Shown here piece by piece: positions 14,386-34,335 of a stretch of DNA of 64,000 nucleotides. This DNA comes from Clostridiales bacterium. Lineage in GTDB: Bacteria; Bacillota; Clostridia; TANB77; CAG-508. How positions within the stretch are numbered: position 1 is the first letter of the stretch; every line of letters begins with the position of its first letter. A program made the position numbers and the translations under genes. Location: NCBI GenBank assembly GCA_003534295.1, contig DPDV01000007.1:4127-68126 (forward strand). Reading direction: 5' to 3'. A model generated the notes under the pieces. That model was not told the origin of the DNA. It saw only the letters and a program-made list of their open reading frames with translations, and did no database searches.

Positions 14386-14423
14386 ATAATGTCTATGTTT
14401 GAGCATAGAACATGTAATAAAAA

Positions 14424-14495
14424 AATCAATCAGTAAAATGGTTGATTTTTTTTGCAAAATGTTGGAGTGATTTTAATCACCCGTCCTTCGAAGCG
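14424..14495 (+). promoter_or_regulatory. divergent copy (A) of the repeated promoter-plus-hairpin leader motif
   Basis: CAGTAAAATGG...GTTGGAGTGATTTTAATCACCCGTCCTTCGAAG aligns to copies B, C and D. It carries compensatory stem changes (GTGAT/ATCAC versus GGCGAT/ATCGCC). Confidence 0.35.
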
Positions 14496-14557
14496 TGGGC
14501 GAGCAAGTTCGCCCCTACACATTGTTTGTATCAAATTAATACCTACAACTTATAATC

Positions 14558-14646
14558 TATGGAGCAAATCGCATACAAGTTACGAACTAAATTCTCTTTC
14601 TAAAAACATTATATACAAAATTTTCATGAATTTCAATGAAAGTATA
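14558..14646 (+). repeat. family-2 terminal module copy 1 (left end of unit E1)
   Basis: TATGGAGCAAATCGCATACAAGTTACGAACTAAATTCTCTTTCTAAAAACATTATATAC...CAATGAAAGTATA, near-identical to the copy at 32752 and related to the copy at 25558. Confidence 0.6.
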
Positions 14647-14719
14647 TAAAGCTATCAAATTAGATGATATAATTTGCTTAAAATTACAAATAACTTATTT
14701 TAAGAGGATGTGGTTATAT

Positions 14720-15339
14720 ATGTTAGATATTAATTTTAATCAAATCATTGAAATGATTGAAAAGCGAAAAAATAATGCTTACAGAAAAGTAAATGAAGAA
14801 ATGATTTTATTGTATTTAGAAGTTGGTAAATTCTTATATGAACTAAGAGAAAATAGTAATTATGGTGATAAAATAACAACAAAAGGCTCAGATTTTATGA
14901 AAAATAATTATCCTAACATAAAGGGATTTACTAAAAGAAATATAGAACGTATGATTCAATTTTATAGTACTTATAAAGATGATGAGATTGCGACACCAAT
15001 GGTGACGCAATTGTTCTGGACAAATAATTTGTTGATTTTGAGTGGAGCTAAAAGCAAAGAGAAAAGGCATTTTTATTTAAAATTATCTATTAAAAATAAT
15101 TATTCAAAATGAATTTATATTTAGAAGCCCTAGATAGAGATGTGAAAAAAGAACAAGAGAATCCAAGTGTTGGAGTTATATTATGTAGTTCTAAAGATGA
15201 AGATGTTGTTGAATATTCAATTAGTAAAAATATGTCTCAAACTATGATTTCTGAATATAAGTTAAAATTAATAGATAAAAAAATATTAGAAACAAAACTT
15301 AAAGAAATGAAAAATTTGATAGATAATAATGATAAATAG
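14720..15339 (+). pseudogene. YhcG/DUF1016-family (PD-(D/E)XK nuclease) gene with internal deletion and frameshift
   Basis: ORF1 (to 15112) matches the YhcG N-terminal region (INFNQIIEMIEKRKNNAYRKVNEEMILLYLEVGKFL...RNIERMIQFY...QLFWTNNLLIL). ORF2 (15109-15339) matches the YhcG C-terminal tail (PSVGVILCSSKDEDVVEYSI...). The central nuclease core is missing. Confidence 0.55.
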
Positions 15340-15372
15340 TAAGTTGTCGAACAGATTGGAGAAAATTTTATT

Positions 15373-16023
15373 ATGAGTTTTAAAATAATAGACTTAGAAA
15401 AATATGATAGAAAAGAACATTTTATACATTATTTAAATAATGTACCATGTTCATATAGTATGACAGTTAATATTGATATTACAGACTTATTAAAATTAAC
15501 AAAAGAAAGAAATTATAAATTATATCCAGTAATATTATATGCAATAACAAAAGTAGTTAATAATCATATTGAATTTAGAATGAGTTTAGATGAAAACGAC
15601 AATTTAGGATATTACATTAATGTAAATCCGTCTTATACAATATTTCATAAAGATAATAACACTTTTTCAAATATATGGACCAAATACGATAGTAGTTTTG
15701 AAAAATTTTATAATAATTATGAAAAAGATATTCAAGAGTATGGAAACGAGAAAGGTTTTATAACCAAGAAATGTGAAGAAAATAATTTAATAAACATTTC
15801 GTCTATACCATGGGTAACATTTACTGAATTTAATTTGAATCTACCAAGAGGAGAAAAATATTTATTGCCAATATTTACAGTAGGTAAATTTTATGAACAA
15901 AGTAATAAAATATTATTACCATTAGCAGTACAAGTGCATCATGCAGTATGTGATGGATTTCATACGAGTAGATTTATAAATGATCTACAAGAATTCGTTA
16001 ATAATTTTGAAAATATAGTATAA
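15373..16023 (+). CDS. cat: type A chloramphenicol O-acetyltransferase
   Basis: 216 aa with the CAT active-site signature VQVHHAVCDGFH and overall CAT layout. Confidence 0.8.
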   Translation: MSFKIIDLEKYDRKEHFIHYLNNVPCSYSMTVNIDITDLLKLTKERNYKLYPVILYAITKVVNNHIEFRMSLDENDNLGYYINVNPSYTIFHKDNNTFSNIWTKYDSSFEKFYNNYEKDIQEYGNEKGFITKKCEENNLINISSIPWVTFTEFNLNLPRGEKYLLPIFTVGKFYEQSNKILLPLAVQVHHAVCDGFHTSRFINDLQEFVNNFENIV

Positions 16024-16055
16024 GGTAAATTTATATGTTGAAAGGAGATAAACTT

Positions 16056-32343: not shown

Positions 32344-32679
32344 TGTTTTTTTTAAGTAATCTTCTAATTCAGATAATTTAATCTTATTAGATAAGTTCTC
32401 AATGTATATCTCATTAGAATAATTAAAAGCAAGAAATGTAATATTATTAATGATTATTCTATGTGGTTCAACATAAGTTAAGTTAGTTCTATCAATCTTT
32501 CTTATACTACCATTTATGATTTTTAGAGTAGTATTAGAAAACGCACATATTAGTTCTAACTTCTTTTTTAATGATTCTTCAATAACAACTTCTTGCTTAA
32601 TAATATTTACCATAAATACCATCCTTTCTTTGTAGGATAGTCTTTGTATGACTTCCAAGCCTGACACGTGTGAGTCCAA
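32335..32679 (-). CDS. hypothetical protein
   Basis: 114-aa ORF convergent with the previous gene. Confidence 0.3.
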   Translation of the reverse strand: MDSHVSGLEVIQRLSYKERMVFMVNIIKQEVVIEESLKKKLELICAFSNTTLKIINGSIRKIDRTNLTYVEPHRIIINNITFLAFNYSNEIYIENLSNKIKLSELEDYLKKTLT

Positions 32680-32751
32680 TACACAAAAAAACTAACCCAA
32701 ACCTTGAGTTAGTTGTATTAAAAAAGCTCGAAAAGTTCGAGCGTATTTCCT

Positions 32752-32840
32752 TATGGAGCAAATCGCATACAAGTTACGAACTAAGTTCTCTTTCTAAAAA
32801 CATTATACATAAAGTTTTATTAAAATTCAATGGGAGTATA
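32752..32840 (+). repeat. family-2 terminal module copy 3 (left end of unit E3)
   Basis: TATGGAGCAAATCGCATACAAGTTACGAACTAAGTTCTCTTTCTAAAAACATTATACAT...CAATGGGAGTATA, followed by ATATAGTATAAT. Confidence 0.6.
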
Positions 32841-32978
32841 TGAAAATTTAATAAAATATAGTATAATTAGTTTTAAATGATATTTATTATGCCACTTCCG
32901 CGAAGTTTCGTGTATATATCTATCCTAACACTAAAATATGTATCATAAAATACTAAAATCTAGAGGAGTGAATTTAAA

Positions 32979-33974
32979 ATGATTAATAAAATAATTAATT
33001 TAGTAAACCCAGATAATAAAGATTTAAGTGAATTATCAAAAGATGAATTATTAGAATTATTAGTAAAGTTAAATAAGTGTTTAAGATGTCTGGATGAATC
33101 CGAAAATGTTCTTGAAGAAAATATGCTAGCAGGTGATTTAGTATCACCTACAAAAGAAGTTCAAATGAAAACACTTGAATATTTAACACAAAATATGTCA
33201 AAAGTTCCAGATAAAAAGGCAAGAGCAACAATGGTATATTATACATTGTTAAATTTACATATGTTTAGTGATGGTAATGGAAGAACATCAAGATTTATGT
33301 ATGATTTAATAAGTGGTGATTTAAATGAAGATAATATTTCATATTATTTTCATAAAAGTTCTAATAATACAACAAACCAAAATAATGATTTAGAAAAAAA
33401 TAAGGGAATATTAGATATATTTATTGCCAATCAAATACCAGATGAGTTAATTTCCAGTCAATTAGGATTTGTTCCTCAAGAAATATTAAAAAACTATAGT
33501 TGGATAACAGTTGGTCACACTAATACTAGTCCATCAACAGAAACAATAATTCCTAAATCTTCACTAGAAAATTTGACACAAAAAGAACTACAGGATTTAG
33601 ATAAAATTTTACACGATAGTTACGGTATGAAGTTATGTCCAAGTGGATTGGCGATGTTATATGTATCAAATAAAAAAGGGCAACTAAGTAAATGGATTGA
33701 CATAAATAAAAACCATATATCATCAATAAAAGGGCTTGAAAGAAGATTTAATTTTTCAATATACAAACATCCTGAAACGATAGCTGATTGGACTCCAGAT
33801 GATTTTAGAGAAGTTATAAATGTGGGTAATGCTGTTAAATATGCAAGGTTGAAGACTTTAATAGATGTTATTGCTCAACCTGAAAAATATATAAATCCAG
33901 ATTCAGGTAATACTTATTGTGATGATATACTTGGTATATCAAAAGCTAAAGAAGTTGGTAGGGTTGACAGGTAA
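32979..33974 (+). CDS. Fic-family protein (AMPylase-type motif)
   Basis: HMFSDGNGRTSR matches the Fic core HxFx(D/E)GNGRxxR. Confidence 0.7.
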   Translation: MINKIINLVNPDNKDLSELSKDELLELLVKLNKCLRCLDESENVLEENMLAGDLVSPTKEVQMKTLEYLTQNMSKVPDKKARATMVYYTLLNLHMFSDGNGRTSRFMYDLISGDLNEDNISYYFHKSSNNTTNQNNDLEKNKGILDIFIANQIPDELISSQLGFVPQEILKNYSWITVGHTNTSPSTETIIPKSSLENLTQKELQDLDKILHDSYGMKLCPSGLAMLYVSNKKGQLSKWIDINKNHISSIKGLERRFNFSIYKHPETIADWTPDDFREVINVGNAVKYARLKTLIDVIAQPEKYINPDSGNTYCDDILGISKAKEVGRVDR

Positions 33975-33983
33975 ATAACATTT

Positions 33984-34268
33984 AAAGAGGGTATGGGAAT
34001 TTCCCATATACGAATTTGTATGGGAGTACAAATTCAGTGCTGGCTAGCTAGCTAGTTAGACATATATTTTATTCACATATTCAAAAAAACTAAAAAGAGG
34101 ATTAAATTATTCTGATAATTTTTTCCTCTTTTTGGTCGTCAGTAGATACTCTTACATAAATACCACATCTCATAGTTTTCCTCCTTGAAAGAAAGAGAAC
34201 TTTTGAAGCTTTATATAAAATAAAAACTTACGAACTTTTAAGTCCGTAAGTTGATTTCAAATGGAGCG
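33984..34268 (+). repeat. family-1 terminal module copy C (with recombinase start stub on the minus strand at 34102-34173), directly abutting the tRNA-Gly 3' end
   Basis: Near-identical to 21583-21856 apart from a short CTAGCTAGTTAGACATATATT insert. Its terminal TGGAGCG is the CCA end of the tRNA at 34262-34335. Confidence 0.7.
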
Positions 34269-34335
34269 GATAGCGAGAATCGAACTCGCGCGACCAGGTC
34301 GGAAGCATGGCATTCTACCACTAAATTATATCCGC
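34262..34335 (-). tRNA. tRNA-Gly(UCC)-like
   Basis: Minus strand GCGGATATAATTTAGTGGTAGAATGCCATGCTTCCGACCTGGTCGCGCGAGTTCGATTCTCGCTATCCGCTCCA. Acceptor, D- and T-arms are good. The anticodon stem has one U-C mismatch and position 37 is G. Confidence 0.6.

Follow-up and report, generated by a model that had tools for sequence, protein, structure and literature searches.

The window analyzed here is a 64-kb stretch (64,000 nucleotides) of contig DPDV01000007.1 from a Clostridiales bacterium, and it contains a 19.7-kb array of accessory genes next to a gene for tRNA-Gly(UCC). This region is very probably an integration hotspot, formed by tandem accretion of elements encoding large serine recombinases (LSRs) at the CCA end of the tRNA and subsequently decayed. 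The proposed integrative elements, 4–11 kb in length and each with its own LSR, would recombine their attachment (att) site attP, with the core (C)GCTCCA(T), with the tRNA CCA end, leaving the core at both element ends. Later arrivals, belonging to at least three LSR families, would enter at the same tRNA junction and displace older units inward, and the resident units, including all four in the window, appear to have lost their recombinase genes by ordinary internal deletions. Since none of the four retains a recombinase gene, the array should be immobile unless an LSR acts on it in trans. An earlier reading made without database searches (the sequence-only reading) had proposed serial site-specific integration at the tRNA 3′ end, and this is borne out by an empty site in a related strain and by precise single-unit differences between strains.

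Insertion at the tRNA-Gly gene and boundaries of the units

ARAGORN and Rfam agree on two tRNA-Gly(tcc) genes, at 14312–14385 and 34262–34335, and these were the only matches in an Rfam scan of the 13–36 kb region (E ≤ 1); the hairpins and the structured box described below matched no described RNA family. Loci of the same species were collected from public assemblies by means of the flanking dCMP-deaminase protein (24 of the 8039 listed blocks of its index were read), which gave ten loci. The content adjoining the tRNA differs in each of them, with units present in some and absent in others, a variation that the sequence-only reading had proposed to look for among relatives together with an empty site. 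The latter was found in L008, where the two tRNA-Gly genes are 170 bp apart and the sequence runs ...CCGCTCCA directly into TAGATTATAAG (in a longer reading, ...CTATCCGCTCCA into TAGATTATAAGTTG...). Window positions 13001–14565 are collinear with L008 as far as the core, and 13001–14565 and 34261–36000 abut in L008 with an overlap of 7 nt. On this alignment, therefore, the 19.7 kb are an insertion at the CCA end of the tRNA at 34262–34335. The two tRNA genes had been thought to bracket the array; both are indeed present, but the left one (14312–14385), by the same comparison, is merely the next gene and not part of the insertion. This left tRNA also ends in GCTCCA, and family-A elements (defined below) occupy tRNA-Gly genes ending in ...CTACCTGCTCCA in L019 and L037, which belong to other species. 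It is empty in the window, L007, and L008, the last two being the only ones of the ten same-species loci that reach it.

The target and the units of the array are as follows, where the P arm denotes the tRNA-side end of an element and P′ its far end.

34262–34335, minus strand: target tRNA-Gly(UCC), whose CCA 3′ end (TGGAGCG on the plus strand) is the attB core
14312–14385, plus strand: neighboring convergent tRNA-Gly(UCC), unoccupied in the window
14386–14559: original spacer past the target tRNA (distal arm of attB), now displaced by 19.7 kb
14560–21855: E1, family A without recombinase; split YhcG pseudogene, CatA-type cat, ferredoxin, pentapeptide protein, cupin, DUF6512, ABC exporter
14560–14684: E1 left end; P′ half-site TGGAGC-AAATCGCATAC-AAGTTACGAAC, outward promoter 14636..14608 (minus strand), inward −10 box
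21584–21856, minus strand: E1 right-end module (family 1); box 21584–21644, tnpV terminator, LSR stub 21690–21761, P-arm hairpin/terminator, core TGGAGCG 21850–21856
21850–25566: X, family B without recombinase; LemA and a DUF2207 membrane protein
25272–25469, minus strand: family-B LSR stub at the right end of X, followed by the P arm ...CGTCACATTGGTGCGACG... and TGGAGCG at 25560
25560–32759: E2/Y, chimeric unit as a whole
25560–26636: E2 part; variant family-A P′ end, NUDIX 25719–26186, 68-aa open reading frame (ORF), box 26351–26410, terminator 26434–26486, tnpV 3′ remnant 26500–26613
26637–32759: Y part; decayed element with a right end of the family-C type
32754–34268: E3, family A without recombinase; Fic 32979–33974; the unit nearest the tRNA
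32802–32867: E3 left-end divergent promoters; P_out TTGAAT-17-TATAAT (minus strand, 32830..32802) toward the junction, P_in (plus strand, 32840–32867) toward Fic
33988–34047, minus strand: E3 box (nhmmer), structured, between the core module and the cargo
34102–34173, minus strand: E3 family-A LSR stub, 23 codons and a stop; residues 1–14 are recombinase, the remainder is read from the tnpV terminator
34225–34252, minus strand: E3 P-arm hairpin AACTTACGGAC/GTTCGTAAGTT and T-run, terminator-like, directly behind the tRNA

TGGAGC(G) is present at all five boundaries (14560, 21850, 25560, 32754, and 34262), and at 34262 TGGAGCG is the reverse complement of the tRNA 3′ end ...CGCTCCA. The bare hexamer TGGAGC was rejected as a sufficient junction marker, since the plus strand of the array has nine copies, four of which are internal and off the boundaries. 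The junctions are therefore defined by the flanking arms and by strain comparisons, and not by the hexamer alone. A repeat finder placed the right-end module (family 1) at 21585–21856 and 33988–34268, the two copies being 98–99% identical, with a partial copy at 26351–26486. Left-end (family 2) copies begin at 14560, 25560, and 32754, each 2 nt to the right of the position first given; identity is 81% over 127 nt between the first and third copies and 70–79% over 81 nt for the middle one. The tRNA-Gly pair, both repeat families, the identical stub, and the TGGAGC(G) junctions were all located as claimed by the sequence-only reading, within 2–4 nt.

Judged by these ends, the junction-delimited units number four, not three as first counted, and derive from three LSR families: E1 and E3 from family A, X from family B, and the E2/Y chimera from A and C. 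The right end of X (...CGTCGCACCAATGTGACG...) matches the tRNA-side P arms of family-B LSR elements, and in L084 this P arm lies directly behind a tRNA and ahead of an intact family-B LSR; the right end of Y (GCTCGAACTTTTCGAGC) matches the P arms of family-C LSR elements. E1, X, and E3 keep both att-type ends and only stubs of the recombinase, and the ends of E2/Y come from two families. The E2 part, formerly taken as a complete unit at 25558–26487, has neither stub nor P arm, i.e., no right end of its own in the window; in L003, an E2 unit with a full stub-type right end adjoins the tRNA. Within the 64-kb window there is no intact LSR gene, and only N-terminal stubs remain.

Pairs of loci differ by single units at the tRNA junction. 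L009 corresponds to L006 plus a 4,009-bp intact Fic element, and L002 to L007 plus an LSR-less Fic unit. L126 contains the array of the window plus an intact element (8270–13850) between the Fic unit and the tRNA, which encodes a 641-aa LSR, a 461-aa Mob_Pre relaxase, and a 241-aa protein; its new junctions read ...GATTTCAAATGGAGCG followed by GGTGTCG... and ...ACGTCGTTGGAGCG followed by GATAGCG. From the stub start through the junction, the Fic unit of L126 has the same sequence as that of the window despite the adjacent newcomer. This unchanged stub end indicates that newcomers enter at the tRNA junction without cutting the resident recombinase.

It is highly improbable that the repeats are scattered intergenic sequences of the miniature inverted-repeat transposable element (MITE) type or local duplications, in an island built by homologous recombination alone. 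Homologous exchange clearly occurs, as described below for E3 and E1, and some breakpoints between strains lie off the junctions. However, the end motifs and the internal box have no further copy in the 64-kb window (expected matches in shuffled sequence, 0), elsewhere they are always found in tRNA-anchored arrays with a fixed order and orientation relative to the LSR, and nucleotide precision is seen in both the empty site and the single-unit insertions. The association of the repeats with cargo boundaries, which the sequence-only reading had noticed, thus reflects true element ends.

Intact elements, recombinase stubs, and exchange of modules

The intact counterpart of the E3 Fic unit is located at 10634–14642 of L009. 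Its order is tRNA, a 69-nt end (P arm), a 92-aa ORF, a 596-aa LSR, TnpV, a terminator, the box, Fic on the opposite strand, and the family-2 (P′) end. The LSR contains the Resolvase (PF00239), Recombinase (PF07508), and Zn_ribbon (PF13408) domains. The three pieces of family 1 map to the L009 end, to the first LSR codons, and to the terminator and box behind tnpV. At the stub junction ACCAAAAAGAGG, LSR ...GACCAAAGAGA is joined to the terminator AAAAAAGAGA; the join ...GACGACCAAAAAGAGGAAAAAATT links recombinase ...GACGACCAAAGAGATAATGG to ...TTTAAAAAAGAGAAAAAAATT before the terminator. As this alignment indicates, the family-1 module arose from the intact end by a microhomology deletion that begins at LSR codon 15 and extends to the tnpV terminator, with all of tnpV lost. 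The stub allele also lacks the 92-aa ORF. An intact recombinase matching the stub, which the sequence-only reading had proposed to seek, thus exists in L009, but only the first 14 residues of the stub peptide MRCGIYVRVSTDDQKEEKIIRII (23 residues, identical at 21690–21761 and 34102–34173) are recombinase. L002 and L004 have a different, larger deletion in the Fic unit, which joins the end hairpin directly to the terminator and represents an independent second allele, and L010 has yet another decayed version. Given several distinct deletion alleles, the stubs are ordinary deletion scars.

The sequence-only reading had accounted for the stubs differently: the att site used by each incomer would overlap the 5′ end of the resident’s recombinase gene, which would thereby be cut. 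The ‘suicidal’ integrases of the SSV type do split their own gene on integration, and the four stubs, all on the minus strand as first described, share one direction and lie close to a junction. Nevertheless, the crossover core is 88 nt upstream of the family-A stub start codon, 90 nt upstream in family B (from 25469 to TGGAGCG at 25560, where 85 bp had been given), and ~1.4 kb upstream for the Y stub. Moreover, the sequence past the family-A stub is the element’s own tnpV terminator, the E3 stub adjoins the tRNA with nothing inserted beside it, and the Fic stub of L126 ends as in the window although a newcomer adjoins it. The position of the cores excludes an att site within the gene of the SSV kind; truncation by incomers is, on these grounds, extremely unlikely, and deletion within resident units is preferred.

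Exchange between units is evident from the composition of E3. From Fic through the left end, its cargo is 99.6–100% identical to the Fic units of L002 and L009. In the terminator and box stretch, identity to the same units is 68–94% per 50-nt window, and the parts nearer to the tRNA are gapped by deletions. Compared with the E1 right-end module, 248 of 250 positions of E3 match over the first 200 nt, and this identity is lost on the cargo side of the box. Since the right end of E3 resembles that of E1 and its cargo resembles orthologous Fic units, the right-end module has been exchanged by recombination between units. In the proposed course of events, recombination between conserved end modules would have spread one deletion allele, the ‘stub’, to several cargos, which would be why the right ends of E1 and E3 are 99–100% identical.

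An alternative for the spread of the stub allele is movement in trans. In this scheme, LSR-less stub-type units would be streamlined non-autonomous vehicles of a serine-recombinase cassette system, moved by family-A LSRs, with the tRNA end acting like attI. In metagenomes, the deletion junction recurs unchanged with no fewer than five different cargos. It is also present in tRNA-Gly(GCC)-anchored arrays, in a form ~92% identical to the L003 copy and with flanks unrelated to those of the window, and the Fic stub unit is found in two array backgrounds, followed either by a family-C unit or by a family-B unit. In addition, both ends needed for recombination are retained and conserved. On the other hand, end-module recombination, as seen for E3 and E1, accounts for the same facts without trans-mobilization, and every checkable cargo type also occurs with an intact LSR. 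The ABC-side cargo flank of E1 follows the box in intact-LSR elements of other species (L015, L019, L020, L024, and L026). Other independent deletion alleles exist, there is neither a resident platform recombinase nor a shared promoter, and no circular LSR-less unit was seen. Such a cassette system is possible but doubtful as a full explanation of the array; for the stub allele itself, either recombination between conserved ends or trans movement of stub-type units could have been responsible.

Recombinase families, attachment sites, and the structured box

The L009 recombinase was scanned against one genome per species, and 314 stretches encode relatives. Their hosts are uncultured gut Bacilli, ‘Tenericutes’, and ‘Clostridium sp. 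CAG’ genomes, with one filed under Mycoplasmatota incertae sedis; where contigs are long, these species reach 1.2–1.34 Mb, and the window’s own species has 1.3–1.45 Mb. At 42 loci, the family-A LSR begins 454–676 nt behind a co-oriented tRNA, in most cases Gly-UCC; the others are Gly-GCC/CCC, Thr-CGU/GGU, one Cys, and one His. Each of the 42 family-A elements that have a tRNA no farther than 1.2 kb upstream begins directly after ...C(T/C)CCA, with TTTGAAAWCAACTTACGGAC...GTTCGTRAGTT; at the loci beyond these 42, the upstream sequence is missing or the element lies behind the P′ end of another unit. Two further LSR groups, B and C, are placed likewise at tRNAs. Each is 27–30% identical to A (about 27% protein identity between A and B), and they share 59% with each other. 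The family-A P′ end (GTTCGTAACTTGTATGYGATTYGCTCCA) is conserved across species and is followed either by host DNA or by the P arm of family A, B, C, or a fourth type. Tandem arrays are thus the rule. TnpV (PF14198) is encoded in intact family-A and family-B elements, and Mob_Pre in family-C-type units only. The plasmid collection contained no LSR relative above 33% identity, and hence no annotated cultured counterpart, and a literature search found no description of this LSR family.

The core shared by attP and attB is GCTCCA(T), 6–7 nt. Joining the right and left ends of family A gives an attP of the form GTTCGTAACTT-12 nt-CT-12 nt-AACTTACGGAC, an imperfect inverted repeat with the predicted sequence GTTCGTAACTTGTATGCGATTTGCTCCATTTGAAATCAACTTACGGAC. 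The CT of GCTCCA, at the center of symmetry, is the putative crossover dinucleotide.

The tRNA-side end would supply a hairpin terminator for the tRNA, followed by an LSR operon (in family A, small ORF, LSR, and TnpV) reading away from the tRNA, and the far end would provide divergent promoters, one driving the cargo and the other pointing outward across the junction. The P-arm hairpin just behind CCA scores as an intrinsic terminator and is conserved directly after CCA in the 42 loci; the family-C end has equivalent hairpins. The outward promoter of the left end is close to consensus, ATTGAAA-17-TATAAT (TTGAAW-17-TATAAT) followed by TAGAAAGAGAAC (E3 32830..32802 and E1 14636..14608, minus strand). 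Of 36 distinct family-A left ends, taken from other species and with unrelated cargo, 32 have retained it, and each family-A unit has its own promoter. In a circular form, transcription from the outward promoter would cross the joint and enter the recombinase operon, and after integration the recombinase would be located behind the tRNA and the tRNA-adjacent terminator. These conserved motifs suggest a promoter switch between the integrated and circular states. As regards RNA folding, a 13-nt inverted repeat, AAGTTCTCTTTCT/AGAAAGAGAACTT, links the E3 ends (32783–32795 and 34190–34202) and is present at the corresponding positions of E1; its copies are at unequal distances from the crossover core and pair in the folded joint transcript. 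A predicted pairing of the P′ arm with the 5′ half of the P-arm terminator hairpin (−9.6 kcal/mol) forms before the terminator is complete, and the full-length minimum-energy fold of the outward-promoter transcript keeps the terminator and does not favor the antiterminator. Antitermination by the P′ arm is thus a speculation from modeled folds.

A 61-nt structured box lies behind tnpV in family-A and family-B elements. It has 90 nhmmer matches (loci L001–L090), three of them in the window (21584–21644, 26351–26410, and 33988–34047, minus-strand sense). Wherever checkable, the gene upstream is tnpV or a tnpV remnant, directly adjoining, and the similarity between elements of different cargo ends right behind the box (...CCCATACCCTT). 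Its first hairpin, GAATTTGTA/TACAAATTC, has the conserved loop TACTCCCG and is followed by a second palindrome, ATGGGAATTCCCAT. Stem pairing is kept through TTT/AAA to AAAC/GTTT swaps in other species, with 51 both-side covariation cells against 20 in shuffles (0 of 500 shuffles reach 51); a palindrome bound by a dimer could also account for such covariation of its halves. None of the compared loci has the box adjoining a Mob_Pre/Mob gene, and a simple adjacency test gave no support for the box as an origin of transfer (oriT) common with Mob_Pre elements, i.e., for a hitcher sharing the oriT of its helper. Nine viral contigs of IMG/VR carry the box. Among the six with protein matches, TnpV is present in all six, an intact LSR in four, and a tRNA in two; these nine contigs provide no evidence of phage transfer. 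An extended form of the trans-movement scheme, somewhat less likely than the scheme itself, would make the stub module (P′ end, divergent promoters, cargo slot, box, scar, and P arm) a vehicle that exchanges cargo at the box, an integron analogue in reduced-genome gut Bacilli, with the box serving as the site of cargo exchange or of transfer.

Several points weigh against accretion by LSR integration as a complete account. No recombination was observed, and excision, circular forms, and LSR activity are deduced. With no intact LSR in the 64-kb window, the current mobility of the array is unproven. Any route of transfer between cells can only be surmised, given that family-A elements have no relaxase or other transfer gene despite their many host species. 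The lone tRNA-His case (GCCCCA) would require CC or CA, which makes the crossover dinucleotide ambiguous. Finally, breakpoints in content between strains also occur off the junctions, e.g., at 14811, 18184, and 26636 of the window; site-specific recombination is therefore not the sole process shaping the array, and cargo blocks move independently too.

Relation to known islands and cargo of the array

Integration at tRNA genes is characteristic of tyrosine integrases; of 297 serine-integrase islands surveyed in 2020, only 14 were located at t(m)RNA genes, a use that the authors considered previously unreported (PMC7192596). In Firmicutes, accretion of integrative and mobilizable elements (IMEs) and cis-mobilizable elements (CIMEs) has been described, in which elements at a conserved gene end decay and keep attL/attR, and the next one integrates at the att site holding the gene end (Guédon et al. 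2017, PMC5704250). The present array is alike in being a tandem of unrelated and decayed units. In that work, 3′- and 5′-end targets are tied to tyrosine integrases, and site-specific IMEs with serine recombinases disrupt dispensable genes, whereas the LSRs considered here act on the tRNA CCA end and leave the tRNA intact, and family-A elements have no relaxase. Like CIMEs, the units keep att-type ends, have no integration or transfer genes, and were derived by deletion, as seen from two alleles in the Fic alignment. Intact elements are co-resident with decayed units in L009 and L126.

In SCCmec and composite islands of the staphylococcal cassette chromosome (SCC), Ccr LSRs integrate at the rlmH 3′ end, forming tandem arrays with short repeats, and ccr-less units are excisable in trans. 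The target there is rlmH and here a tRNA, and the LSR described here is not a Ccr: its best NCBIfam match is CcrB, with 144.5 bits (144 bits in the SCC comparison) against a cutoff of 900. The ssrA islands of Dehalococcoides (McMurdie et al. 2011, PMC3146451) are similar in having an LSR (there CcrB-like) at the island edge by an RNA gene, tandem islands delimited by 3′-end repeats, some islands without an integration module, and variable cargo. They differ in using tmRNA, with a 20-bp direct repeat and insertion at the T-loop, in contrast to the tRNA CCA end and 6–7 nt in common here. The integration module of those islands comprises six genes, one of them for a second small recombinase, compared with small ORF, LSR, and TnpV in the present elements.

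Tn4451/Tn4453 (TnpX, TnpV, and TnpZ; partly covered in PMC5704250) share with the present elements an inward-reading LSR at one end, TnpV, cat cargo, a MobV/Mob_Pre relaxase (here in family-C-type elements), and a recombinase expression tied to the circular joint, which for the present elements is a prediction. However, the target specificity of Tn4451 is low (GA dinucleotide), while these elements are specific for tRNA CCA ends; the outward promoter here is complete within one end and not assembled at the joint; and TnpX is matched only weakly (E = 1.3e-7 over the catalytic domain). The tycheposons of Prochlorococcus (Hackl et al., bioRxiv 10.1101/2020.12.28.424599) are likewise cargo elements by tRNAs in small host genomes, with older ones pushed inward and remnants accumulating. 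Tyrosine recombinases are used by 910 of 937 of them, partial tRNA copies are left behind, and replication genes are frequent; here there are only LSRs, a repeated 6–7-nt core, and no replication genes. As for the promoter switch, the integrated integrase of ICEKp1 lies behind a tRNA promoter and a terminator-like stem-loop, and after excision a far-end promoter reads across the joint into the integrase gene (PMC13023037). That evidence is experimental and concerns integrative and conjugative elements with tyrosine integrases, whereas the switch suggested here derives from conserved motifs alone.

The integron-cassette-like logic suggested by the sequence-only reading is a loose analogy. A scan of the 23 largest array ORFs (65–835 aa) and of 10 flanking ORFs found no tyrosine recombinase. 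The boundaries are LSR half-sites around GCTCCA and not attC sites, and the box, the sole conserved hairpin, has an internal position between tnpV and the cargo. Neither a platform integrase nor a common promoter is present, and intact copies carry their own LSR. Membership among integrons was rejected, since it fails on every defining feature.

The island class and its building logic are therefore already known; what is new is the tRNA-CCA-targeting LSR families, the minimal architecture, and the widespread stub-type derivative. With at least three LSR families at tRNA CCA ends in hundreds of uncultured gut Bacilli genomes (about 1.2–1.4 Mb where this can be judged), a natural system is available for the reading of a tRNA gene end by LSRs. 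For genome engineering, the elements may also provide LSRs whose target is short and universally conserved. Furthermore, the arrays concentrate defense and resistance genes (CatA-type cat, Fic, AbiA, PDC-S32, and NUDIX) and show how accessory genes circulate in poorly known, uncultured human gut bacteria.

The remaining features of the Y part are listed below.

27004–27654: AbiA C-terminal (HEPN) fragment, profile positions 398–601 of 604
27805–28650, minus strand: IS110 transposase fragment, adjoining the AbiA fragment
28950–29936: repeat protein of 328 aa with four or five tandem 225-nt (75-aa) repeats, 74–84% identical
29954–31153, minus strand: Mob_Pre relaxase fused to an LSR remnant
31163–31384, minus strand: Y LSR stub, related to families B and C
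31597–32343: PDC-S32 defense candidate
32690–32742: Y P-arm hairpins, with the core at 32754

The repeat protein had no convincing Pfam or PADLOC match. In E1, cat (15373–16023) scores 304 bits against the NCBIfam cutoff of 270 for type A chloramphenicol acetyltransferase. The pentapeptide protein (16272–16904), formerly called Qnr-like, scores 58 bits against a cutoff of 240; the Qnr identity was rejected, and it is a generic pentapeptide-repeat protein. At the left edge of E1, a YhcG/DUF1016 nuclease gene (14636–15339) is split into ORFs of 158 and 76 aa and is a pseudogene. The block of E1 from cat to DUF6512 is found in L002 and L007 within a different unit, beside a KilA-N gene, and L009 has a full-length IS110 copy (400 aa) just inside the box of E1.

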